Part shown: positions 1,196 to 41,489 of the stretch, piece by piece | Layout of the letters: each line of letters begins with the position of its first letter | How positions within the stretch are numbered: position 1 is the stretch's first letter | NCBI GenBank assembly: GCA_028707495.1 | Contig: JAQWAS010000003.1 | Location: 47,711 to 111,710, forward strand | Direction of reading: 5' to 3' | DNA: 64,000 nt | From: Patescibacteria group bacterium | Lineage (GTDB): Bacteria > Patescibacteriota > Patescibacteriia > UBA2591 > JAQWAS01 | The notes under the pieces: generated by a model | Databases searched by the model: none | What the model saw: only the letters and a program-made list of their open reading frames with translations | Told to the model about the DNA's origin: nothing | Program-made: the position numbers and the translations under genes

Positions 1196-1774
1196 ATGCT
1201 TGAACAACTTTTTGGTTCAAAGGCGCGCTTAGAGATTTTAAAGCTATTCATTGATGAAGAGGGCCCTTTTTATGTTAGAGAGATCGGTAAAAAAACACAT
1301 TTGCACATTAATTCGGTTAGGCGGGAATTAGATAATTTAGAAAAGTTGGGTTTATTAAAAAGTTTAAGTCAATTACGGGGAGAACACGATAAAAAATATT
1401 ATCAGCTTGATAGAGACTTTGTTTTATATCCGGAAATTAAGGCTTTAATAAAAAAAGCACATTTAATCTTACAAGAACCTTTAATCAATGATTTAAATAA
1501 AATCGGTCAAACTAATCTTTTAGTTTTAAGCGGTTTTTTTGTTAATTCCAGTGATAGTCCAACTGACGTTTTAATTGTGGGTAAATTTAACAAAAATAAA
1601 TTAAATTTTTTAATGAAAAAGTTTCAAAAAGACGTGGGTCAAGAAATTCGTTATACTATTTTATCGCCAAATGAATTTAAATATCGACGCGATTTAACTG
1701 ATAAATTTTTATTCAATATTTTAGAACAACGCAAGATAATTTTGATTGACAAATATAAGTTAAATGGCAAATAA
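1196..1774 (+). CDS. Winged-helix (ArsR/MarR-like) regulator fused to a nucleotidyltransferase-like C-terminal domain
   Basis: The N-terminus LEILKLF...VREIGKKTHLHINSVRRELDNLEKLGLL is a wHTH. It overlaps tsaB by 11 nt. Confidence 0.45.
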   Translation: MLEQLFGSKARLEILKLFIDEEGPFYVREIGKKTHLHINSVRRELDNLEKLGLLKSLSQLRGEHDKKYYQLDRDFVLYPEIKALIKKAHLILQEPLINDLNKIGQTNLLVLSGFFVNSSDSPTDVLIVGKFNKNKLNFLMKKFQKDVGQEIRYTILSPNEFKYRRDLTDKFLFNILEQRKIILIDKYKLNGK

Positions 1775-2174
1775 AATGTATTTATTTATTGATACTAGTC
1801 AGCGAGAATATTTAATTTTAGCTTTATTAGACGAACAGCGCATAGTCAGTCGGGTTAAAATTTTATCTCAAGGTAAACAGTCAGACAAAATTTTATTTTA
1901 CTTAGATAAATCATTGAATCAACAAAAAATTAAATTACAAAATTTAACGGGTGTTATTGTTGTGCAGGGACCAGGTTCGTTTGTCGGTTTACGTGTCGGC
2001 ATAAGTTTGGCCAACGCTTTGGGTTATAGTTTAAAAATTCCAGTCGTTGGTACCCTGGAAAAAGATTTATCAAAGATAGTTAATAATATTAAAAAATTAT
2101 TTAAAAAAAAGTCGTCTATAATCGTTTTGGCTAAATATGGCCAAGATTTAAAAATTAAAAAAACTAAACACTAA
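1764..2174 (+). CDS. tsaB: tRNA threonylcarbamoyladenosine biosynthesis protein TsaB (YeaZ-like, inactive Kae1 paralog)
   Basis: The GPGSFVGLRVGISLANALGY motif is typical of TsaB/YeaZ. Confidence 0.75.
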   Translation: MANKMYLFIDTSQREYLILALLDEQRIVSRVKILSQGKQSDKILFYLDKSLNQQKIKLQNLTGVIVVQGPGSFVGLRVGISLANALGYSLKIPVVGTLEKDLSKIVNNIKKLFKKKSSIIVLAKYGQDLKIKKTKH

Positions 2175-2185
2175 TTTAAAATTTT

Positions 2186-3481
2186 ATGGAATACATATTA
2201 CTCAAAGATGTAGAACAATATTTAAATCAGGAGGTGACTCTCAAAGGTTGGATTTTTAATTACCGTTCATCCGGTGGAATTTATTTTTTACAGTTCAGAG
2301 ATGGTACTGGTTTGGTGCAGGGTGTCGTAGTTAAAAATAGCGTTTCACCTAAAGTTTGGGAGGATTGTCAAAAAATTACCCTAGAAACCAGTTTAACTCT
2401 GACTGGCAAAATTAAATCAGAAAAACGGTCGCCTTATGGTTATGAAATAGAAATTAAGGATTTAAAATTAATCCAAATTGCCGAAGAGTATCCGATTGGT
2501 AAAAAAGAACATGGTCCAGAATTTTTAATGGATCAACGGCATTTATGGCTGAGATCATCTAAACAATGGGCTATTCAAAAAGTTCGTAACACAATTATCA
2601 ACGCGACATATGAATATTTTAATCAACAAGGTTTTACTAAAATTGATGCACCTATTTTAACTCCTACGGCTTGCGAGGGGACGACAACTTTATTTGAGGT
2701 AGATTATTTTGGCAAGGAAAAGGCCTATTTATCACAAAGTGGTCAATTGTATATTGAAGCAGCTATTTTTAGTCATAATCGAGTTTTTGACTTTGGACCA
2801 ACTTTTAGAGCTGAAAAAAGTAAAACGCGACGGCATTTAACAGAGTTTTGGATGATGGACGCCGAAATGGCATTTGCGGAACATGAAGAAAACATGAAAG
2901 TCCAAGAAGACTTAATTTATCATATCTTACAACGAGTTTTAGAAAAAAACATAGAAGATTTGCAGATTTTAGAAAGAGACATTAGCTTTTTAGAAAAAAT
3001 TGATAAACCGTTTAACCGTTTAACCTATAAAGAAGCGATTAAAAAATTAGGGGAGTTGGGTTCAAAAATTAAATTAGGAGAGGACTTAGGTGCGGCTGAC
3101 GAAACATTATTAACCAAACAATATGATCGGCCTATTTTTGTTGAAAAATACCCAGCCCAAATGAAAGCTTTCTATATGAAACATGATCCAGAAGATCAAG
3201 ATTTAGCATTGTGTGATGATTTATTAGCTCCTGAGGGTTATGGTGAAATTATTGGTGGTTCGCAAAGGGAAGATGACTATGAAATTTTATTAAAGCGCAT
3301 GCAAGATCATAAATTACCAATGAAAGATTTCGGTTGGTATCTAGATTTAAGAAAGTATGGTTCAGTGCCACACTCGGGTTTTGGTTATGGCTTAGAAAGA
3401 ATTGTAGCTTGGACGTGTGGGTTAAAACATGTCAGAGAAACAATTCCATTCCCTAGGATGTTGACAAGATTGCGACCGTAA
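2186..3481 (+). CDS. asnS: Asparaginyl-tRNA synthetase (class IIb)
   Basis: An OB-fold N-terminus and class II motifs: FRAEKSKTRRHLTEFWMMDAEMAF, GGSQRE and GFGYGLERIV. It is 431 aa. Confidence 0.8.
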   Translation: MEYILLKDVEQYLNQEVTLKGWIFNYRSSGGIYFLQFRDGTGLVQGVVVKNSVSPKVWEDCQKITLETSLTLTGKIKSEKRSPYGYEIEIKDLKLIQIAEEYPIGKKEHGPEFLMDQRHLWLRSSKQWAIQKVRNTIINATYEYFNQQGFTKIDAPILTPTACEGTTTLFEVDYFGKEKAYLSQSGQLYIEAAIFSHNRVFDFGPTFRAEKSKTRRHLTEFWMMDAEMAFAEHEENMKVQEDLIYHILQRVLEKNIEDLQILERDISFLEKIDKPFNRLTYKEAIKKLGELGSKIKLGEDLGAADETLLTKQYDRPIFVEKYPAQMKAFYMKHDPEDQDLALCDDLLAPEGYGEIIGGSQREDDYEILLKRMQDHKLPMKDFGWYLDLRKYGSVPHSGFGYGLERIVAWTCGLKHVRETIPFPRMLTRLRP

Positions 3482-3491
3482 ATATATATAA

Positions 3492-3530
3492 AAAAAGACT
3501 CCTTAATTTAAGAGGAGTCTTTTTAAATTT
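3492..3530 (+). terminator. Rho-independent terminator after asnS (AAAAAGACTCCTtaatttaAGAGGAGTCTTTTT)
   Basis: A perfect 9-bp stem followed by a T-run. Confidence 0.7.
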
Positions 3531-3649
3531 AAATAATATTAATTTTTCAAATATTTTTTTCTTAATTCATAAGCTGTAATAGTCGGGATATAAAAGACGA
3601 AATCAGCCACATATTTACCCGCAATTATACCTAAACTATAATTATTAAT

Positions 3650-3937
3650 TCACAATGGAAAAAAATACATACACGCTGGCCTAATTAACAAACTATCTAT
3701 AATTTCAGCCGGTCCAAATTCGATAACTATGTTTCTAATGTTTTTTATAAAACTTTTTAGATTATACTGACAATTCTGTTTTTGAGGTTTTCTGGATTGT
3801 ATAATATCTCGAACAAAAATAAAACCATAATAACCAAGATTATCTCCGATAGTTCCCATGTAAGCGGCTAATATTTTATTCTTTGTAATTAAATAAATCA
3901 AAGAGGCTCCTAAAGTTGTGCAGATGGTTGCGGACAA
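3650..3937 (-). CDS. Small hydrophobic hypothetical protein. The same frame continues about 36 codons past the TGA stop, so it may be a gene remnant.
   Basis: Taken from the ORF track only. It lies downstream of and co-oriented with the FemAB-like and ATP-grasp genes. Confidence 0.25.
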   Translation of the reverse strand: MSATICTTLGASLIYLITKNKILAAYMGTIGDNLGYYGFIFVRDIIQSRKPQKQNCQYNLKSFIKNIRNIVIEFGPAEIIDSLLIRPACMYFFPL

Positions 3938-3988: not shown

Positions 3989-4882
3989 TTAATCTTTATA
4001 AAATTTATATTGTGATATTTTGTCTAGATGCCATTTTTCTTTCCAGCCTAAATCTTCAACTCCGGCGTCAAACGTTTTGCAACCCAAATTAATAGCCAGT
4101 TCAATATTTTTTAAATTTATATATGACCCTAAATTCGGATGGTCTTTTTTATTAGTGCCAGCGTTCATATAGGTATAAGTATCTTTATATTTAACTGCTA
4201 AAGAAACAGACTCTTTAATATTATTAATCACAATAGTAATTAAATGAAAATTCAAATTAATCGACATTAAATAGTCAAAGACTTTAGTAAAGAGTGGATC
4301 GCTGAAACTTGATTCTTCGCCAAAATTTTTACGATTGAGTTCCATTAATCTTGATAAATCCTCTTTTTGATCGTAAAAAATTTGGGGTTGTTTATTTTCG
4401 ACTATTTCAATAATTTTTAATAAATTTTTGCGACGTTTGTTGCGAAAATATTTTTTTAAATAATCATCTAAATTTTTAACATCAGACAAGTCAGCTACAT
4501 ACTTATATTCTAACAATTCTAAAGATTGAGTGAAGCTGTCACGACCGATAATATCTTCTAATTGAGTCTGTTGATTGATGAGTTGATAAAATTCAGGAAT
4601 ATATTTTTCATATTCGGGTTTAATAAAAACTTGATTATCTTCCATATAAGCACTACCAAAAAATTCTAGACAATGACGGCGAGTATTAAATTGTAAAGGC
4701 AATAAGCCAATATTTTTACCGTCAATTTGGCCAACGTAAAAATATAAATCAAATTGATTATCTTGATAAAAACAATAGCGAAAATCCCAATTATCATAAA
4801 TAATTTTATCTGGACTGAATTCTAGCCAGAGTTGTTTGGCTGTTGGCAAGTCGTGAATACATTCAAAATTAATTTTAGACAT
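3989..4882 (-). CDS. FemAB / BioF2-like GNAT-fold acyltransferase (Acetyltransf_6-like)
   Basis: The 297-aa size and the C-terminal pattern ...NAGTNKKDHPNLGSYINL...DAGVEDLGWKEKW match the FemX/CelD-like family. The call is from memory, not from a search. The stop is 1 nt from the ATP-grasp gene. Confidence 0.45.
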   Translation of the reverse strand: MSKINFECIHDLPTAKQLWLEFSPDKIIYDNWDFRYCFYQDNQFDLYFYVGQIDGKNIGLLPLQFNTRRHCLEFFGSAYMEDNQVFIKPEYEKYIPEFYQLINQQTQLEDIIGRDSFTQSLELLEYKYVADLSDVKNLDDYLKKYFRNKRRKNLLKIIEIVENKQPQIFYDQKEDLSRLMELNRKNFGEESSFSDPLFTKVFDYLMSINLNFHLITIVINNIKESVSLAVKYKDTYTYMNAGTNKKDHPNLGSYINLKNIELAINLGCKTFDAGVEDLGWKEKWHLDKISQYKFYKD

Positions 4883-4883
4883 T

Positions 4884-7313
4884 TTAAATAATATTAGGTT
4901 GGAGATGATAATAGGGTGGACGTTCTTTGTAGCGTTTGATAGCTAGACGGATAATCTCTTCCAAAAAGTCGCCGTAATCCATGCCAACTAATTCAGCTGA
5001 AGCGGGTACGCAGTCTCCAAAATTAATTGATGGATTGGGATTTAATTCTAAGACGTAAGGATTGTTATTTTTATCAACTCGAATTTCAACTCGGCCATAA
5101 TCATGACAGTCTAAAATATTATAAGTATCTAAAGCAATTTCACCCAAGAGATCGGCCAATTTATGACTAATGTTTTGTGGTGGTCGTTGGCGAATGATAG
5201 TGTTATAAGCTTGGTCTTCATTCCATTTAGCTTCAAAGGGGTAGATATGCCAATAACCCTGAGGCATATTATCAAAAATTGAACGTGAAAGTGGTAAAAT
5301 TCTAAGATCATCTTCTTCGCTCCCTAAAATTGAAACATCATATTCATCGCCCTCAATATATTCTTCAATTAAAGCTGGTCGGCCAATATCGATCAAAATT
5401 TTACGTAATTGTTTTTGTAATTCTTGAGGATTGGTTACGACCGAATTATTAGTAATACCAATAGAGTTATCGGTGTTAGCTGGTTTAACAATTAATGGAT
5501 ATTTAAAGTCATCACGAATTTCATCTTCTAAATCATACACATAATCCCATTTAGGCGTGGGAATATTGTGATAGGTTAATAATTTTTTTACTCGAATTTT
5601 ATCAATACACAAAGATAGGGTAAAGGGATTGGATCCGGTGTAGGGGATTTGCAGAGAATCTAAGATAGCGGCGGCGTGAGGCTCTAATAAACTGGAATTA
5701 TTAATGCGTTCACAAACATTAAAAACCAAATCAATTTCGCTATTTTTTAAATCATTAACCACTTGACCCACATTATTAAAATCAAAAAAACTAATTTGAT
5801 AACCACGCTCTAATAAAGTTTTTTCAATATTTTTTCCAACTGAAGTTAAATCTTTTTCAACTTCACTAGTGTTATCATCAAACAGATTACAAGCAATGCC
5901 AATTTTTAAATTGCGTTGGTTTTGAATACTCATGCGCCGAATTTTTTCGATTTTACTATGACCAATAATAATATCTTTATTTAAAGCAGAAAATGAAAAT
6001 CTACTTTTACGCGATGTTTTACCAATTGATGAAGCTGGGTCAAACTTGGCGATTTCATAATGAACCATTTTAATAGCTTCGTTTAGATTATCTTGAGCAT
6101 CTAATAAATTTTCTCCGGTGACAGAGATCCATCCCAAATTTTCATAACCTTCTGGTGGAGCTAAAATTGGATCACCAATTTGTTTAAAAAAGTTAATTTC
6201 TTTTAAATATTTTTTTTGTTTTAACTCTGGATCAATATTAATTTGAACTAAAGCACCAGAATAATCTGCCAGAAAATCTTGTTCGCATAAATAAGTATAG
6301 GGATCTTCGGGTTTATAAATTTTAGGCAAATAAATTCCCAAAGCTATCTTAACGGCATTTTCAATTAAATCTACATGCCAGGCTTCTTTAATAAAAGAAT
6401 AAATTTCATCGCCACCCATACGCAAGTTAACTTCCAGGGGAACCGGACCATTGTGGGTTGACTTAGCTTCAAAGTGAATACAACCGTTTTGCACGCCTAA
6501 TTTTTCTAGAGTTTCATCCGCTAATTGAATTAAGGCTAATTGATCATTTTCGGGCAGGCTTGATGGGATGGTATGTTTAGTTTCAATAAAAAATGGTTCG
6601 TTAGTTTTATAATTATCTGAGATAGAATAAAATTTTATTTTGCCATTTTGTAATAAAATATCAATATCAACTTCATCACCCTCGATATATTCTTCAATCA
6701 AAATATCTAAGCCATTATTTAAAGCTGATTCGACGGAAGTTGAAATATTTTTTTTGACAAATTTATAAATATTTTTTAATTCATCAACATTTTCAATTTT
6801 AATTACTAAGGCACTACTTGATCCATAGGTTGGTTTTATGACCAATGGCATATTAAAATTTTGAGCTACATATTCAAGATCTTCTTTTGAATGAATTAAT
6901 TTATGTTTAGGAGAGGGAATATTATTTTCTAAACATAATTCTCGAAATAAATATTTATTTCTAAATTTTTTAGCGATATTATGAGGAATGCCAATAAACT
7001 GAAATTTATCAGATAATTTAGATGTCAATAGAACATCATCTTCCCAAAAAGTAATCACGCCATTGATTTTAATATCAGGATTTTCTTTGATAAACTTATC
7101 AACCTCCTGAATGGATTCAGTGTGATTATTGGTGTCGGCCAAAATCCAATGGTCAGCATATTGGCTCGCCCAATTTTTTTCTTTATTTAAAATTACCAGT
7201 TTGAGACCGAGTTTTTTTAATTTTTGGACAATAAATCTTTTTCTAAAATAACCAGTATTAACTAATAATAAAGTTTGATCGGCATAAGATGTTGGATTGA
7301 AATGATTGTTCAT
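4884..7313 (-). CDS. Tandem ATP-grasp ligase: an N-terminal L-amino-acid-ligase/carnosine-synthase-like domain plus a C-terminal D-Ala-D-Ala-ligase-like domain
   Basis: There are two separate ATP-grasp cores: PLVIKPTYGSSSALVIKIEN...EEYIEGDEVDIDIL and YPLIVKPANTDNSIGIT...EEYIEGDEYDVSIL...RVEIRVD...LELNPNPS. It is 809 aa. Confidence 0.65.
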   Translation of the reverse strand: MNNHFNPTSYADQTLLLVNTGYFRKRFIVQKLKKLGLKLVILNKEKNWASQYADHWILADTNNHTESIQEVDKFIKENPDIKINGVITFWEDDVLLTSKLSDKFQFIGIPHNIAKKFRNKYLFRELCLENNIPSPKHKLIHSKEDLEYVAQNFNMPLVIKPTYGSSSALVIKIENVDELKNIYKFVKKNISTSVESALNNGLDILIEEYIEGDEVDIDILLQNGKIKFYSISDNYKTNEPFFIETKHTIPSSLPENDQLALIQLADETLEKLGVQNGCIHFEAKSTHNGPVPLEVNLRMGGDEIYSFIKEAWHVDLIENAVKIALGIYLPKIYKPEDPYTYLCEQDFLADYSGALVQINIDPELKQKKYLKEINFFKQIGDPILAPPEGYENLGWISVTGENLLDAQDNLNEAIKMVHYEIAKFDPASSIGKTSRKSRFSFSALNKDIIIGHSKIEKIRRMSIQNQRNLKIGIACNLFDDNTSEVEKDLTSVGKNIEKTLLERGYQISFFDFNNVGQVVNDLKNSEIDLVFNVCERINNSSLLEPHAAAILDSLQIPYTGSNPFTLSLCIDKIRVKKLLTYHNIPTPKWDYVYDLEDEIRDDFKYPLIVKPANTDNSIGITNNSVVTNPQELQKQLRKILIDIGRPALIEEYIEGDEYDVSILGSEEDDLRILPLSRSIFDNMPQGYWHIYPFEAKWNEDQAYNTIIRQRPPQNISHKLADLLGEIALDTYNILDCHDYGRVEIRVDKNNNPYVLELNPNPSINFGDCVPASAELVGMDYGDFLEEIIRLAIKRYKERPPYYHLQPNII

Positions 7314-7325
7314 TTTAAAAAATTA

Positions 7326-7362
7326 AAATTAAAAAAGAACCTAGACCATAAAAATTTAGGTT
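7326..7362 (-). terminator. Hairpin plus T-run reading on the minus strand (AAGAACCTAaatttttatggTCTAGGTTCTTTTTT), immediately upstream of the ATP-grasp start codon
   Basis: Inverted repeat GAACCTAG/CTAGGTTC followed by T-rich sequence on the minus strand. It implies a minus-strand transcript ending here. Confidence 0.4.
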
Positions 7363-7659
7363 CTTGAAATTTGATTATCCCCGGGGTCGTCTGAATCCGC
7401 CTCGGTTAATGAGTTAGTGCTGGGATGACCAACACAAGATTGATTATTCATTAATAAAATTAAAACTTAACATAATTATAAACGTACTCAGATAAATAGT
7501 CAATTGTTAATAACATCTAAACATATAAACATATAAACAAAATAACAAGAGAATGCAAAGATGTTTATTCACTTGAAATTTTTTATATTTTTGATATGAT
7601 AAAATTAATAGCGTTAATTTATTCTTTAATTTTTGAGAAAGGAAAATTATGAGAAAAGA

Positions 7660-7990
7660 ATGGATTAGTATTGGGTGACACTAGGTGTCAAAGTATAGTT
7701 CTTTAATTTGAACAAGGAGGTTCGTATGAAAAAGGTTCTATTTGTCTCAGACGGTCTTAGCATCGGATAGTATCCTGCGATTAGGAGAACCCCAAAGATG
7801 CAACATTGTAAATAGCAATTGCTTTAAAAGCGATGGCTATCGTTAACCGTTCATTTTAACCCAGGAGGTCTTTATGAGAAGATCACCGCCCATTCTAATT
7901 ATGGGCATCGAGGTTATCTCCGCCTAGGCACTTGAGTGCTGACAAGGCTAATAGGGGCGCACAGGTTGCGCCCTTTTTTATTTTTAAAGA
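7660..7990 (+). ncRNA. GC-enriched ORF-free region with stem-loops and two strong-RBS mini-ORFs (13 and 17 codons). It ends in a terminator at about 7957-7987. It is a candidate structured RNA or leader region; I could not assign a family.
   Basis: No ORF of 60 aa or more lies in 7314-8025. GC is locally higher than the flanks. Hairpins include ggtgacactaggtgtca. GGGCGCACAGGTTGCGCCC plus TTTTTT closes the region. Confidence 0.3.
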
Positions 7991-8025
7991 GTTTGATATA
8001 ATGAAAGTGTTATTATTAAAAAAAT

Positions 8026-31162: not shown

Positions 31163-33196
31163 ATGTCACAACGTAAAAAAATTTGGTTAAGCTTTGCAGC
31201 TATTTTAATTATAGCCCTTTTTTGCGGTGCTGTTGATTATCCCAAATTACCTTGGGATAATAAAGTAGCTAATTGGTTTACCAATCAAAAAGTTCATCTA
31301 GGTTTAGACCTGCAAGGCGGAACGCATTTAGTTTATCAAGCTGATGTCAGCAATATCGAATCAGAAGAAAAGGGTTCAGCTGTTGAAGGTGTCAGAGATG
31401 TGATTGAACGTCGGGTTAACACTTTTGGCGTTTCTGAGCCAGTCGTTCAAACTAATAAAGTTAAAAATACTTGGCGAATTATTGTAGAATTACCAGGCGT
31501 TAAAGACGTTAAACAGGCGATTCAAATGATTGGAGAAACGCCTTTATTAGAATTTAAAGAACAAAAAGACGCACCCGAGGCTGAGGAAAAATTAAAAATT
31601 GAGAGTCAAGCACAAGAGATTTTAACTGAAGTCAAAAATAATCCAGCGCAGTTTAATGAAATTGCTCAACGAGTCGCAGATGAAAATTCTGGTATAGAAT
31701 TTAATGCCGATCAAATAAAATTTAAAGATGAAATAGATGCTTCAATTCGTGATCAGGTTTGGAATATGTATCAAGGACAGATTTCAAAGGTGATTGAGGG
31801 TAATTTAGGCTATATGGTTTTAGATCAGAATGTGGTGCCACGCGCGGGTTATTACATTATAAAAATAGACGATAAAAAATATAACATAGAAAGAATTGAA
31901 GAAAATCAAGACCAAGAGGTAAAAGCTTCACATATTTTAATTGCCTATCAAGGAGCTGAACGAGCGACAACCGATAGAAGTCAAGAAGAAGCTAAAACTT
32001 TAGCTGAGGAATTGTTAGATCGTATAAAAAATAATGGCGAGAATTTAGCTGATTTAGCTAAAGAATATTCAGATTGTAGTAGTGCTGAAATGGGTGGCGA
32101 CTTGGGATTCTTTGGTAAAGGAACTATGGCGCCGGAATTTGAAGAGGCGGCCTTTAATTTAGAAAAAGATCAAATTTCAGATATAGTTGAAACTAATTTT
32201 GGCTATCATATTATTCAAGTGACTGACATTAAAGGCGAGACTGAAACTAAAACTTATGAAGATCAAATCGTTTACAGTTCACTTTTCTTTGGTATTACTT
32301 ATGATCCTTGGCAAAACACTGGTTTAAGTGGTCAACAATTACAAATCGCACGAGTTGAGTTTGATCCCAATACTGGCGCACCAGAAATAGCTTTAGAATT
32401 TAATCAAGAGGGAGCAGATTTATTTGCGGCCATTACCGAACGCAACGTCGGTCAGCCGGTAGCGATTTTCTTAGATGGTCAGGCAATTAGCATTCCAACA
32501 GTTAATGAAAAAATTCCTGACGGTAAAGCGGTCATTAGTGGTAAATTTAACATCACTGAAGCTAAATTATTAGCTCAACGTTTAAGTGCTGGTGCTTTGC
32601 CAGTACCAATTGAATTAATTTCACAACAAACAGTTGGTGCTTCTTTGGGCCAAGATTCTGTGGCTAAAAGTTTAAAAGCTGGATTGATCGGTTTAATTCT
32701 AATTGCTTTGTTTATGATAATTTTATATCGTTGGCCAGGTGTCTTAGCTGTTTTGGCTTTAATTTTATACAGCGTTATAACTTTAGCTGTTTTTGAATTA
32801 ATTCCCATCACTCTAACCTTAGCTGGAATTGCTGGGTTTATTTTATCTATTGGTATGGCAGTTGATGCTAATGTTTTAATTTTTGAAAGATTAAAAGAAG
32901 AGCTTAAAGATGGTAAGCCTTTAGACTTAGCCGTTAAGGATGGTTTTGATCGAGCCTGGACTTCAATTCGTGATGGTAATTTATCAACCTTAATTACTTG
33001 TGTAATTTTATATTGGTTTGGTACGAGCATGATTAAGGGCTTTGGTTTAACTTTAGGTCTTGGTGTTGTTTTGAGTATGTTTTCAGCCATTGTCATTACA
33101 AAAACATTTTTAAGATTATTTGGTGGTAGGGGTAAAAGATTGTGGTTGTATGGAGTTAAAAATAAACAACAAGATAAAGATTTAGAAATTAATTAA
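31163..33196 (+). CDS. secD: Protein translocase subunit SecD with a parvulin-type PPIase (PrsA/SurA-like rotamase) domain inserted in the periplasmic P1 region
   Basis: The N-terminal SecD signature is LGLDLQGGTHLVYQAD. The inserted domain is HILIAYQGAERATTD...MGGDLGFFGKGTMAPEFEEAAFNLEKDQISDIVETNFGYHIIQV. The SecD P1 head resumes after the insert (NVGQPVAIFLDGQAISIPTV), followed by the TM bundle. Confidence 0.75.
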   Translation: MSQRKKIWLSFAAILIIALFCGAVDYPKLPWDNKVANWFTNQKVHLGLDLQGGTHLVYQADVSNIESEEKGSAVEGVRDVIERRVNTFGVSEPVVQTNKVKNTWRIIVELPGVKDVKQAIQMIGETPLLEFKEQKDAPEAEEKLKIESQAQEILTEVKNNPAQFNEIAQRVADENSGIEFNADQIKFKDEIDASIRDQVWNMYQGQISKVIEGNLGYMVLDQNVVPRAGYYIIKIDDKKYNIERIEENQDQEVKASHILIAYQGAERATTDRSQEEAKTLAEELLDRIKNNGENLADLAKEYSDCSSAEMGGDLGFFGKGTMAPEFEEAAFNLEKDQISDIVETNFGYHIIQVTDIKGETETKTYEDQIVYSSLFFGITYDPWQNTGLSGQQLQIARVEFDPNTGAPEIALEFNQEGADLFAAITERNVGQPVAIFLDGQAISIPTVNEKIPDGKAVISGKFNITEAKLLAQRLSAGALPVPIELISQQTVGASLGQDSVAKSLKAGLIGLILIALFMIILYRWPGVLAVLALILYSVITLAVFELIPITLTLAGIAGFILSIGMAVDANVLIFERLKEELKDGKPLDLAVKDGFDRAWTSIRDGNLSTLITCVILYWFGTSMIKGFGLTLGLGVVLSMFSAIVITKTFLRLFGGRGKRLWLYGVKNKQQDKDLEIN

Positions 33197-40565: not shown

Positions 40566-41489
40566 ATGTTGGTCAATTTTTTACTAACAGCTATTTTACT
40601 GTTTCAAATTTATTCGCCGACAATTTCAGTCGACAAATTAAATACCACCCTTGAGAGTGGTCATTTTTCTATTAACCAAAAAGATGTAATTTTTCCCCGC
40701 CAAAAACTAGCTAGCCAAAGCTTGGGCTTAAAATTAAACGCTTGGTCGGCTATTGTTGTCGATCAAACTACGGGTAAAATTTTATTTGAAAAAAATAGTC
40801 AAGAAAAACATTCTTTAGCTAGTATTACTAAATTGATGGCCATGGTTGTTTTTTTAGAAACTCAGCCTGATTGGTCGCAGGTTATTACTATGCAAGCCCA
40901 AGATCAGGCTGAGGGTGCGGCCGTTTTTGTAAATAATGGCGAAGAGTTGAAAGTAGAAGATTTGTTTTATAGTGCCTTAGTGGGGTCAGCCAATAATGCG
41001 GTAAAAGCTTTGGTTAGGTCAACCGGTTTAAGCTCAGATGAATTTGTTAATCGGATGAATATCAAAGCTAAACAATTAGGTTTAAATCAAACTCATTTTA
41101 GTGATCCAACTGGTTTAAATCCATCTAACCAATCTACAGCTTATGATATCGCAGTTTTAACGCGTTATGCCTTTCAACAACCCAAAATTCTCCAAGCAGT
41201 ATTGCTAGATAAATATTCTTTCAGGACAGTCGATCAAAATGTTTTACATACAATTAAAAATACCGATGAACTGATTGATAGTTTTTTAAATGATGGTCAA
41301 AATTTTAAATTAATTGGTGGCAAAACTGGTTTTTTAAATGAAGCTGGTTATTGTTTAACGACTCAAGTCCAAGACCACAGCGGACACGATTTAATAATTG
41401 TTTTGTTGGGAAATCGGTCGAGCGCAGAACGTTTTCGTGAAATGAAGGGGCTAGCTTGGTGGACCTTTGAAAATTTTGAGTGGGAATAA
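40566..41489 (+). CDS. D-alanyl-D-alanine carboxypeptidase (PBP5/6-type serine peptidase S11)
   Basis: SITK (SxxK), SANN (SxN), KTG-like GGKTG. A terminator lies at 41493-41520. Confidence 0.8.
   Translation: MLVNFLLTAILLFQIYSPTISVDKLNTTLESGHFSINQKDVIFPRQKLASQSLGLKLNAWSAIVVDQTTGKILFEKNSQEKHSLASITKLMAMVVFLETQPDWSQVITMQAQDQAEGAAVFVNNGEELKVEDLFYSALVGSANNAVKALVRSTGLSSDEFVNRMNIKAKQLGLNQTHFSDPTGLNPSNQSTAYDIAVLTRYAFQQPKILQAVLLDKYSFRTVDQNVLHTIKNTDELIDSFLNDGQNFKLIGGKTGFLNEAGYCLTTQVQDHSGHDLIIVLLGNRSSAERFREMKGLAWWTFENFEWE

Follow-up and report, generated by a model that had tools for sequence, protein, structure and literature searches.

The L-amino-acid ligases (LALs), such as BL00235 of Bacillus licheniformis, BacD/YwfE and RizA, combine an ATP-grasp_4 with an LAL_C2 domain; D-alanine-D-alanine ligases (Ddl) have a three-domain ATP-grasp fold; and the bifunctional GshF (GshAB) holds two ligase modules in one chain, the second of them a Ddl-like ATP-grasp, which form two successive amide bonds. 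Residues of cell-wall cross-bridges can be added either by ATP-grasp ligases or by tRNA-dependent Fem ligases (PMC2922099). Here, we analysed a locus in which counterparts of these enzymes stand side by side, located in a 64,000-nt stretch of DNA (hereafter, the window) from contig JAQWAS010000003.1 of a Patescibacteria group bacterium. Its minus strand encodes an 809-aa protein, which consists of two complete ATP-grasp ligases in one chain, and, one nucleotide further downstream, a 297-aa tandem-GNAT transferase with a predicted FemX-type fold. With a probability of about 0.5, we read the two genes as one operon whose enzymes assemble a short, peptide-like small molecule independently of the ribosome. 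The pair is composed of the following parts:

4884..7313, minus strand: gene of the 809-aa fused double ATP-grasp ligase (ATG start, stop codon included)
6039..7313, minus strand: N-half of the ligase, residues 1-425, L-amino-acid-ligase-like ATP-grasp (ATP-grasp_4 and LAL_C2)
5958..6038, minus strand: inter-module linker, residues 426-452, predicted to be disordered, with the conserved motif PASSIGKTxRK
4887..5957, minus strand: C-half of the ligase, residues 453-809, Ddl-fold ATP-grasp with a non-Ddl substrate pocket (Dala_Dala_lig_C)
4883..4883, minus strand: 1-nt spacer, flanked by the stop TAA of the ligase (4884-4886) and the start ATG of the GNAT (4880-4882), read from the sequence
3989..4882, minus strand: gene of the 297-aa tandem-GNAT (FemX-fold) transferase (ATG start, stop codon included)

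The junction between the two genes reads ...ATT ATT TAA A ATG TCT..., that is, TAA-A-ATG, and the single nucleotide that the original prediction, made from the letters of the window alone, had placed between the stop and the start is indeed there. The reality of the gene pair is far beyond chance, because the 809-aa protein has an identical copy in NCBI (P0037, annotated as a Patescibacteria metagenome-assembled genome, MAG), an independent assembly of the same locus with identical calls of both genes exists in the Logan run SRR22315502, and the ligase has more than 820 homologous clusters, counted at 90% identity. Our literature searches returned no paper describing this ligase fusion or operon and no characterized orthologue.

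Two ATP-grasp ligases in one chain

In Pfam, the N-half matches ATP-grasp_4 over residues 154-302 (E 4.5e-33, 114.6 bits against a cut-off of 27) and LAL_C2 over residues 348-421 (34.1 bits, cut-off 29.4), and the C-half matches Dala_Dala_lig_C over residues 594-788 (E 4.4e-36, 124.8 bits, cut-off 24). Among the sequences of solved structures in the PDB, BL00235, BacD and RizA cover residues 50-390, the best match of the N-half being 3vot (BL00235; E 6e-25), and Ddl covers residues 474-799. An AlphaFold model of the whole protein, computed from an alignment of 38 homologues, has a predicted local distance difference test score (pLDDT) of 83.8. When it was compared with known structures by Foldseek, the N-half gave template-modelling (TM) scores of 0.84 with 3vot (on the target, whole length), 0.78 with 4wd3 and 0.74 with 3vmm, with BacD and RizA ranking next after 3vot, and the C-half displayed the full three-domain Ddl fold, matching the whole-length Ddl structures 3r5x, 4zqi, 2dln and 8evy at TM 0.83-0.88 and 24-26% identity. 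The two complete ATP-grasp domains that had been proposed, LAL-like in the N-half and Ddl-like in the C-half, are therefore borne out by Pfam, the PDB matches, the AlphaFold model and Foldseek.

The N-half shares with the LALs the ATP-grasp_4 plus LAL_C2 architecture, a whole-length structural match (TM 0.71-0.84, 17-22% identity) and the set of Lys, Glu, Mg-ligand and Arg residues, and its two domains, together with the modelled whole-chain LAL fold, place it in the L-amino-acid ligase family. It differs from the described LALs in being fused to a second ligase and in scoring far below the cut-off of the BacD equivalog model (61.6 bits against 850). The linker between the halves has a pLDDT below 50 in the model, and its residues S428, G431, T433 and R435 are invariant in the homologue alignment.

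Across 78 unique homologues, K160, E207, E282, E294 and R298 of the N-half are invariant, E208 is kept in 77 and the metal ligand N296 in 75; in the C-half, K610, E650, E651, K696, R741, E743, E756 and N758 are invariant in all 78. Both ATP-grasp sites look active, since each has retained its Lys for nucleotide binding, its Glu-Glu pair, its metal ligands and its Arg. In the three proteins from DPANN archaea (L005, L006 and L007), N296 is replaced by Ala, all 75 bacterial homologues having Asn at this site, and the first ligation step may differ in archaea.

The D-Ala-binding residues of E. coli DdlB are Glu15, Ser150, Tyr216, Ser281 and Leu282. We mapped the residues of the C-half by alignment to the Yersinia pestis Ddl and then counted them over the 78 unique homologues. 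The position of DdlB Glu15 turned out to be variable (A/S/V/L/T); that of Ser150 is Asn in 78/78 homologues, that of Gly276 is Ser in 76/78, that of Tyr216 is occupied by W (43), Y (26) or F (9), that of Ser281 by D in 49 and G in 21, that of Leu282 mostly by Cys, and that of Asp257 by Glu. The equivalents of Ddl K144, K215, R255, E270 and N272 are invariant. Judged by these positions, the C-half has retained the catalytic machinery of Ddl and lost its D-Ala pocket.

Several known identities were considered for the ligase and rejected. It is not a canonical Ddl, given the scores with PRK01372 (208.1 bits against 243) and TIGR01205 (159.4 against 245.65), the changed pocket and the occurrence of the family in archaea; all NCBIfam equivalog models lie far under their cut-offs for the C-half, which differs from Ddl also in never standing in a dcw context in the loci examined. 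Neither is the protein a cyanophycin synthetase (TIGR02068, 63.4 bits against 850, over residues 119-215 only, with no Pfam Mur ligase domain) or a fragment of carbamoyl-phosphate synthetase (TIGR01369, CarB, 64.9 bits against 1027), with whose tandem arrangement the model cannot be superposed in Foldseek (root-mean-square deviation ~27 Å, TM 0.28-0.36). The doubt raised at the outset, that the protein might be a piece of one of these two enzymes, did not materialize, the model scores being far below the cut-offs. As a functional analogy, GshF comes closer in having two ligase modules per chain, and the C-half matches 3ln6 weakly in sequence (E 2e-4); however, GshF begins with a gamma-glutamylcysteine ligase module rather than an ATP-grasp, and nothing points to a thiol product for the 809-aa ligase. 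Automatic labels such as 'D-alanine-D-alanine ligase' or 'carnosine synthase' on proteins of this family warrant caution.

The ligase clusters come from bacteria of the candidate phyla radiation (CPR). With the taxon of each MAG taken from its database record title, the ligase is 63-74% identical across Peregrinibacteria, Gracilibacteria, Komeilibacteria, Roizmanbacteria, Paceibacteria and others, and 46-48% identical in three DPANN MAGs labelled Woesearchaeota, Nanoarchaeota and Micrarchaeota, in which the C-half is 60-63% and the N-half ~35% identical to that of the window; an orthologue in a Bdellovibrionales MAG is 29-35% identical. Between the window and the related locus L074, the ligase is 64.3% identical, as is the asparaginyl-tRNA synthetase (AsnRS), which suggests that the ligase changes at the pace of a housekeeping gene, similar to that of AsnRS. 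Both the CPR bacteria and the DPANN archaea are ultra-small symbionts with stripped-down metabolisms. That such reduced genomes retain a double ligase of ~800 residues, and that it diverges no faster than an aminoacyl-tRNA synthetase, implies that its product or target is important.

The transferase partner and its replacements

Two landmarks can be located within the 297-aa protein:

4037..4375, minus strand: Acetyltransf_6 match (Pfam), GNAT residues 170-282, in the C-terminal GNAT lobe
4040..4045, minus strand: codons of W280-K281, the invariant aromatic-Lys pair in DLGWKExW (two family alignments)

Acetyltransf_6 (PF13480) is matched by the window protein at 26.8 bits (cut-off 22) and by 35/35 aligned family members, FemAB_like (PF04339) by 4/35; FemAB (PF02388) gave no match for the window protein at E <= 1 and none for the 35 family members at E <= 0.1. 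The structural model is a tandem-GNAT fold (pLDDT 95.4, predicted TM score 0.90). Nine of its ten best PDB matches in Foldseek are FemX (1xf8, 1ne9, 4ii9; E 4e-11, TM 0.64-0.66) or Sbb17/Sba18 (TM 0.63-0.68), followed by FemA and MprF, all of them aminoacyl-tRNA-dependent transferases, with FemX coming from Weissella viridescens and Sbb17/Sba18 being peptide synthases; acetyl-CoA-using tandem GNATs rank lower (TM 0.46-0.55). Searches of the PDB with the single sequence and with a profile gave no match and did not reach FemX. The initial assignment of this protein as FemAB/BioF2-like holds for the FemX-type fold and the Acetyltransf_6 match, and fails for the FemAB model itself.

The catalytic pairs of the described enzymes are Phe304-Lys305 in FemX and Phe328-Lys329 in DhpH-C (PMC12945691). 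W280-K281, at the end of the C-terminal lobe, resembles these pairs and, judged by the motif, may be equivalent to them. The 297-aa protein shares the tandem-GNAT fold with FemX and with the FemX-like transferases Sba18/Sbb17/Orf11, PacB, DhpH-C and VlmA of natural-product pathways, and has its aromatic-Lys pair near the C-terminus. Moreover, a Lys/Arg-rich helix (residues 148-162) starts its C-terminal lobe in the model, the lobe that in FemX bears the tRNA-binding helix. It differs from these transferases in being only 9-12% identical to them and in not matching the Pfam FemAB model, and its use of aminoacyl-tRNA is a prediction. The GNAT diverges much faster than the ligase (mean identity 43% versus 71%), the divergence of the two being correlated (r = 0.71). 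Its family comprises 77 clusters; all of those with a source name are from a CPR lineage or labelled as Patescibacteria group only.

Neighbourhood statistics rest on a metagenome scan, since a single-protein scan of genome contigs gave 4 loci; the metagenome scan keeps the 80 matches closest to the query, and the fractions given below thus describe close relatives. Genes were called with genetic code 11, under which those of UGA-recoding lineages may be fragmented, and were clustered in 88 loci; 72 unique loci, with duplicates removed, show the downstream gene. In 25 of the 72, the GNAT is the next gene 3' of the ligase, always on the same strand, and in 28 related loci the gap between the two genes measures 1-45 nt. 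The GNAT-paired loci belong to at least five clades whose other neighbours differ, and a ligase orthologue that is only 41% identical has the same GNAT arrangement with a 1-nt gap. The tight coupling of the two genes in the window, read from their 1-nt junction, is supported.

A different partner occupies the position 3' of the ligase in five unique loci, namely, a third ATP-grasp protein of 430-450 aa, usually followed by a pyridoxal phosphate (PLP)-dependent decarboxylase of the Orn/diaminopimelate (DAP)/Arg family (LysA-like). This combination is found in CPR, DPANN and Bdellovibrionales loci and never together with the GNAT. The nearest relatives of the decarboxylase are DAP decarboxylase, N-citrylornithine decarboxylase, D-Orn/D-Lys decarboxylase and BtrK. 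In the butirosin BtrJ/BtrK and rhizoferrin FslC-type modules, an ATP-grasp or ligase is accompanied by a fold-III PLP decarboxylase that acts on a conjugated amino acid. The variant operons likewise pair ATP-grasps with a decarboxylase matching BtrK and N-citrylornithine decarboxylase over its full length; however, no carrier protein or citrate ligase was seen in the variants, and the window has the GNAT arrangement, the variant being absent from it.

The Bdellovibrionales operon (L091, 1-8531) has six genes, encoding the double ATP-grasp ligase, an ATP-grasp_3 protein, the PLP decarboxylase, a LAL-like ligase, a SET-domain protein (131 aa) and a GNAT-CN_hydrolase (nitrilase) fusion; no other version of the system is as rich, and it lends itself well to heterologous expression. 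In one CPR clade, one or two SET-domain genes and then HU come after the GNAT or the ligase, with HU behind the SET genes in 17 loci; the GNAT-SET-SET version is represented by L084 (7986-12091). Of the two SET families seen in CPR, one (cluster 11, ~249 aa) is homologous to the distant Bdellovibrionales SET, which makes SET a recurrent component. MurL-like proteins adjoin the ligase in 3 loci (a weak match, 28-31 bits), and neither they nor the third ATP-grasp have a solved-structure relative that a sequence search could find. Other small-molecule neighbours of the ligase are an aminotransferase, a CofE-like ligase and a transporter of the major facilitator superfamily; the remaining ligase loci have unrelated neighbours.

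Further observations concern genes around the pair. A 325-aa EpmA/GenX-like gene (L054 10391-11368; also in L027 and L036) runs convergently to the ligase gene, the 3' end of which it overlaps by ~18 nt; its product scores 224 bits with the model of the elongation factor P (EF-P) lysine aminoacylase (cut-off 287), and it occurs in one CPR clade only. Genes for rubrerythrin and desulfoferrodoxin adjoin the pair in 4-5 loci, directly 3' of it in L001; a thiol-type product was considered in view of these oxidative-stress neighbours, and the evidence was judged too weak. L001, the closest large-contig relative, also has ATPgrasp_ST and 7TM_transglut genes and a RimK/MptN-like ATPgrasp_YheCD gene around the pair (1517-3465, 10989-12116).

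A HMMER scan for related architectures over 1.84 billion representatives, combined with Pfam, detected stand-alone homologues of the N-half and of the C-half, N-half-like modules within proteins of 1100-5940 residues, and C-half relatives that are joined to a GNAT, a second Ddl-like module or a lysine-2,3-aminomutase. The aminomutase and GNAT fusions adjoin as an operon in archaeal contigs (L097 5553-9524, L098 122-4093, L096 195-3873), with the lysine-2,3-aminomutase-Ddl-like fusion first and the Ddl-like-GNAT fusion second. In L097 and L098, this operon starts 5 nt after a histone gene, and in L096 Na+/H+ exchanger genes lie nearby. AblA and AblB, a lysine-2,3-aminomutase and a beta-lysine acetyltransferase, make N-epsilon-acetyl-beta-lysine. 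Judging by its domains, the archaeal operon is an AblA/AblB-like pair with added ligase modules, and the C-half's nearest relatives outside its family are thus joined to the same two enzyme types; however, these relatives are only 33-38% identical to the C-half, and the window encodes no aminomutase.

The GNAT family is also present without the ligase, in L002 and L003. At 7119-17701 of L002, the neighbours of three tandem GNAT paralogues are a MATCAP peptidase, a pair of unfused ATP-grasp_4 ligases, a fusion of ATPgrasp_ST, RimB and MATCAP, and a 7TM_transglut protein. The gene content of this cluster suggests a distinct system for ligating and trimming peptides that draws on the same GNAT family.

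A candidate pathway and its competitors

The fused architecture and the folds, the intact active-site residues, the conserved order of genes and the swapping of partners are results of the analysis; every chemical step of the proposed pathway is predicted, including the step order, aminoacyl-tRNA as the donor, the nature of the substrates and their being small molecules rather than proteins. Each ATP-grasp site would turn a carboxylate into an acyl-phosphate and couple it to an amine. The first amide bond, giving a dipeptide-type product, would be the work of the LAL-like N-half and the second that of the Ddl-fold C-half, in the manner of the bifunctional GshF. The co-translated FemX-fold GNAT would transfer an aminoacyl group from aminoacyl-tRNA onto a free amine of the product or of a precursor. 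In other lineages, a separate third ATP-grasp ligase would perform the third step, with a LysA-like PLP decarboxylase, and the product could be further tailored by SET-domain methyltransferases or by the MurL-like putative epimerase.

This assembly-line reading is suggested by the fusion of two ligase modules of the small-substrate type and by the presence of a FemX-fold transferase or a third ATP-grasp next to them, and small-molecule substrates are suggested by the LAL and Ddl templates, which have closed pockets for small substrates. The best reading of the gene order is that the third amide bond is swappable between GNAT and third ATP-grasp chemistry. In Gram-positive cross-bridges, a residue is likewise placed onto an amine by either enzyme type, an ATP-grasp of the D-Asp ligase type or a Fem ligase (PMC2922099), and here the GNAT and the third ATP-grasp share one operon position in different lineages. 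The cross-bridge ligases, however, act on murein precursors, whereas the present system occurs also in murein-free archaea. By analogy, and with low confidence, we favour a diamino acid or amine of the Lys, Orn or DAP type as the core, since amino groups of such compounds are the common theme of the analogies drawn for the decarboxylase, SET, the aminomutase and FemX. The general idea of a non-ribosomal oligopeptide pathway, already contained in the original prediction, fits the conserved gene order. The locus offers a concrete, expressible two-gene system, with six-gene versions in other lineages, on which FemX-type use of charged tRNA beyond cell-wall and antibiotic pathways could be tested.

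Several points weigh against the proposed pathway. In about two-thirds of the loci, the ligase stands next to no recognizable partner; it therefore has a role independent of the GNAT, whose step is optional. An acyl-CoA may be the donor of the GNAT, given that the FemAB Pfam model failed and that sequence and profile searches miss FemX. The cues for a diamino acid are weak, the MurL-like match being as low as 28-31 bits and Asp standing at the Ddl Ser281 position in only 49/78 homologues. In addition, the SET domains, the HU and histone adjacency and the L002 peptidase cluster fit a protein or peptide target better.

Such a target is assumed by an alternative that we take seriously but consider unlikely, in which the two enzymes of the pair would attach amino acids, after translation, to a conserved protein (HU or histone, a translation factor or a ribosomal protein), in analogy to RimK, tubulin ligases, L/F- and R-transferases and EF-P beta-lysylation, while SET methylates lysines of the same target. 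SET domains are protein-lysine methyltransferases. This explanation would account for the SET genes that follow the GNAT or ligase in one CPR clade and have a homologue in the Bdellovibrionales operon, for HU after the SET genes, for the histone gene 5 nt upstream of the related archaeal pair, for the EpmA-like gene overlapping the ligase 3' end in one clade, and for the L002 GNAT paralogues accompanied by MATCAP, RimB-like peptidases, ATP-grasps and 7TM_transglut. A ligase as slow to diverge as AsnRS would fit a conserved macromolecular partner, and protein N-terminal transferases are among the FemX-fold enzymes (PMC2922099). However, both halves of the ligase match the LALs and Ddl, with their small closed pockets, over the whole length, rather than RimK or TTL-type protein ligases, and the neighbouring PLP decarboxylase, MurL-like protein and aminotransferase are of types that act on small molecules. 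Moreover, the HU adjacency is limited to one clade with extended synteny, the 64 kb of the window contain no SET or HU, and the EpmA-like neighbour is convergent, not co-transcribed and confined to one clade.

The presence of a housekeeping-grade ligase in CPR and DPANN could mean that they share a metabolite or, in a more radical version, that the ligase, with FemX-like and SET enzymes, aminoacylates and methylates lysines of HU, histones or EF-P-like proteins. We regard this as decidedly speculative and unlikely. Aminoacylation combined with methylation would, if true, represent a prokaryotic amino-acid-tagging code for proteins.

Peptidoglycan synthesis offers a third explanation, in which the C-half would be the cell's D-Ala-D-Ala (or D-Ala-D-X) ligase, and the N-half and the FemX-like enzyme would build a branch or cross-bridge of the stem peptide. 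The Ddl fold, a score near that of the Ddl model (208 bits, cut-off 243) and FemX as the best structural match of the partner all point in this direction. The window encodes a DD-carboxypeptidase (Peptidase_S11, 40566-41489), which suggests that the organism makes D-Ala-D-Ala-ended murein, and has no second ddl within its 64 kb; furthermore, MurL-like neighbours exist in 3 loci and a penicillin-binding protein is encoded nearby in L001. On the other hand, three MAGs of DPANN archaea, which are not known to have murein, encode the ligase, and their C-half shares 60-63% identity with that of the window. The Ddl substrate triad is lost (Glu15 variable, Ser150 replaced by Asn, Gly276 almost always by Ser), both NCBIfam Ddl models stay below their cut-offs, the closest relatives of the C-half are joined to lysine aminomutase or GNAT rather than residing in dcw clusters, and no conserved mur or dcw neighbours were found among the 72 unique loci. 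We consider this explanation very unlikely. The cell-wall side-chain role initially proposed for the pair was not borne out, given the DPANN occurrence, the ~2/3 of CPR loci that have no GNAT and the replaced D-Ala-binding residues.

A graspetide or another system of peptides made by the ribosome and modified after translation (RiPPs) was rejected because no conserved small precursor open reading frame (ORF) lies beside the operon in the 72 unique loci and the small ORF at 3650-3937 of the window has no homologue. Finally, the notion that the ligase and the GNAT serve unrelated processes and merely share a transcript draws on the majority of ligase loci having no GNAT and on the GNAT family occurring without the ligase in L002 and L003, but is highly improbable in view of the order, strand and tight spacing that stay constant in 25 unique loci of several clades with differing surroundings, the pairing seen also with the 41%-identical orthologue, the correlated divergence of the two proteins, and the replacement of the GNAT, where it is absent, by another amide-bond-forming enzyme.

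Flanks and other features of the window

The surroundings of the pair contain the following features:

2186-3481, plus strand, convergent with the pair: AsnRS (NCBIfam 559 bits, cut-off 414)
3489..3524, strand unspecified: hairpin AGACTCCT-(9 nt)-AGGAGTCT with A and T runs on its flanks, read directly from the sequence
3650..3937, minus strand: small ORF 3' of the GNAT, 95 aa if started at TTG, 69 aa if started at the ATG at 3859 (the call of the other assembly)
7475..7503, minus strand: promoter-like site TTGACT-17 nt-TATAAT, 11/12 consensus matches, ~160 nt before the ligase ATG
ending at 9859, opposite strand to the pair: aspartyl-tRNA synthetase (AspRS; NCBIfam 683 bits, cut-off 443)

The two synthetases had been singled out as possibly meaningful flanks, which the comparison of loci does not uphold: an AsnRS orthologue lies near the ligase in only 1 of the 72 unique loci, ~6 kb off, and a functional tie of the pair to AsnRS and AspRS was rejected, as the flanks are not conserved. 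AspRS (8471-9859) is short, with 462 aa from an internal start, and matches the 590-residue bacterial model in two stretches, which suggests that it lacks the usual insertion domain.

From the positions of the promoter-like site and the terminator-like hairpin, the transcription unit probably spans ~7.5 kb down to ~3.5 kb. The promoter-like site is a consensus match only, and the regional count of such sites does not exceed the shuffled expectation. The hairpin, which an automated scan passed over owing to its 9-nt loop, is likely a bidirectional terminator for the minus-strand operon and the convergent AsnRS gene. The small ORF between the hairpin and the GNAT has no Pfam or NCBIfam match and no homologue in 98 related loci, and it is doubtful that it is part of the system. 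Its frame (3540-3937, minus strand) runs on past a TGA for ~40 further codons and may represent a small hydrophobic protein that has decayed or been recoded. Neither a tRNA nor an Rfam element was found inside or adjoining the operon.

On the other side, a gene-free stretch of 712 nt (7314-8025) separates the ligase start from a NUDIX gene. Within it, region 7640-7990 (plus strand) folds better than its shuffles (z = -2.73) and has a strong terminator at its end (7953-7985); it has no Rfam match and nothing similar in the 98 related loci, and may be an unrecognized small RNA or leader.

The window has a G+C content of ~31% and encodes DnaK, DnaJ, SecDF and the cysteinyl-tRNA synthetase besides the DD-carboxypeptidase. 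In its SecD (31163-33196), residues 242-356 form a PPIC-type (parvulin) rotamase domain inserted between SecD_1st and P1-head, an unusual fusion that joins a foldase to an accessory subunit of the translocon.

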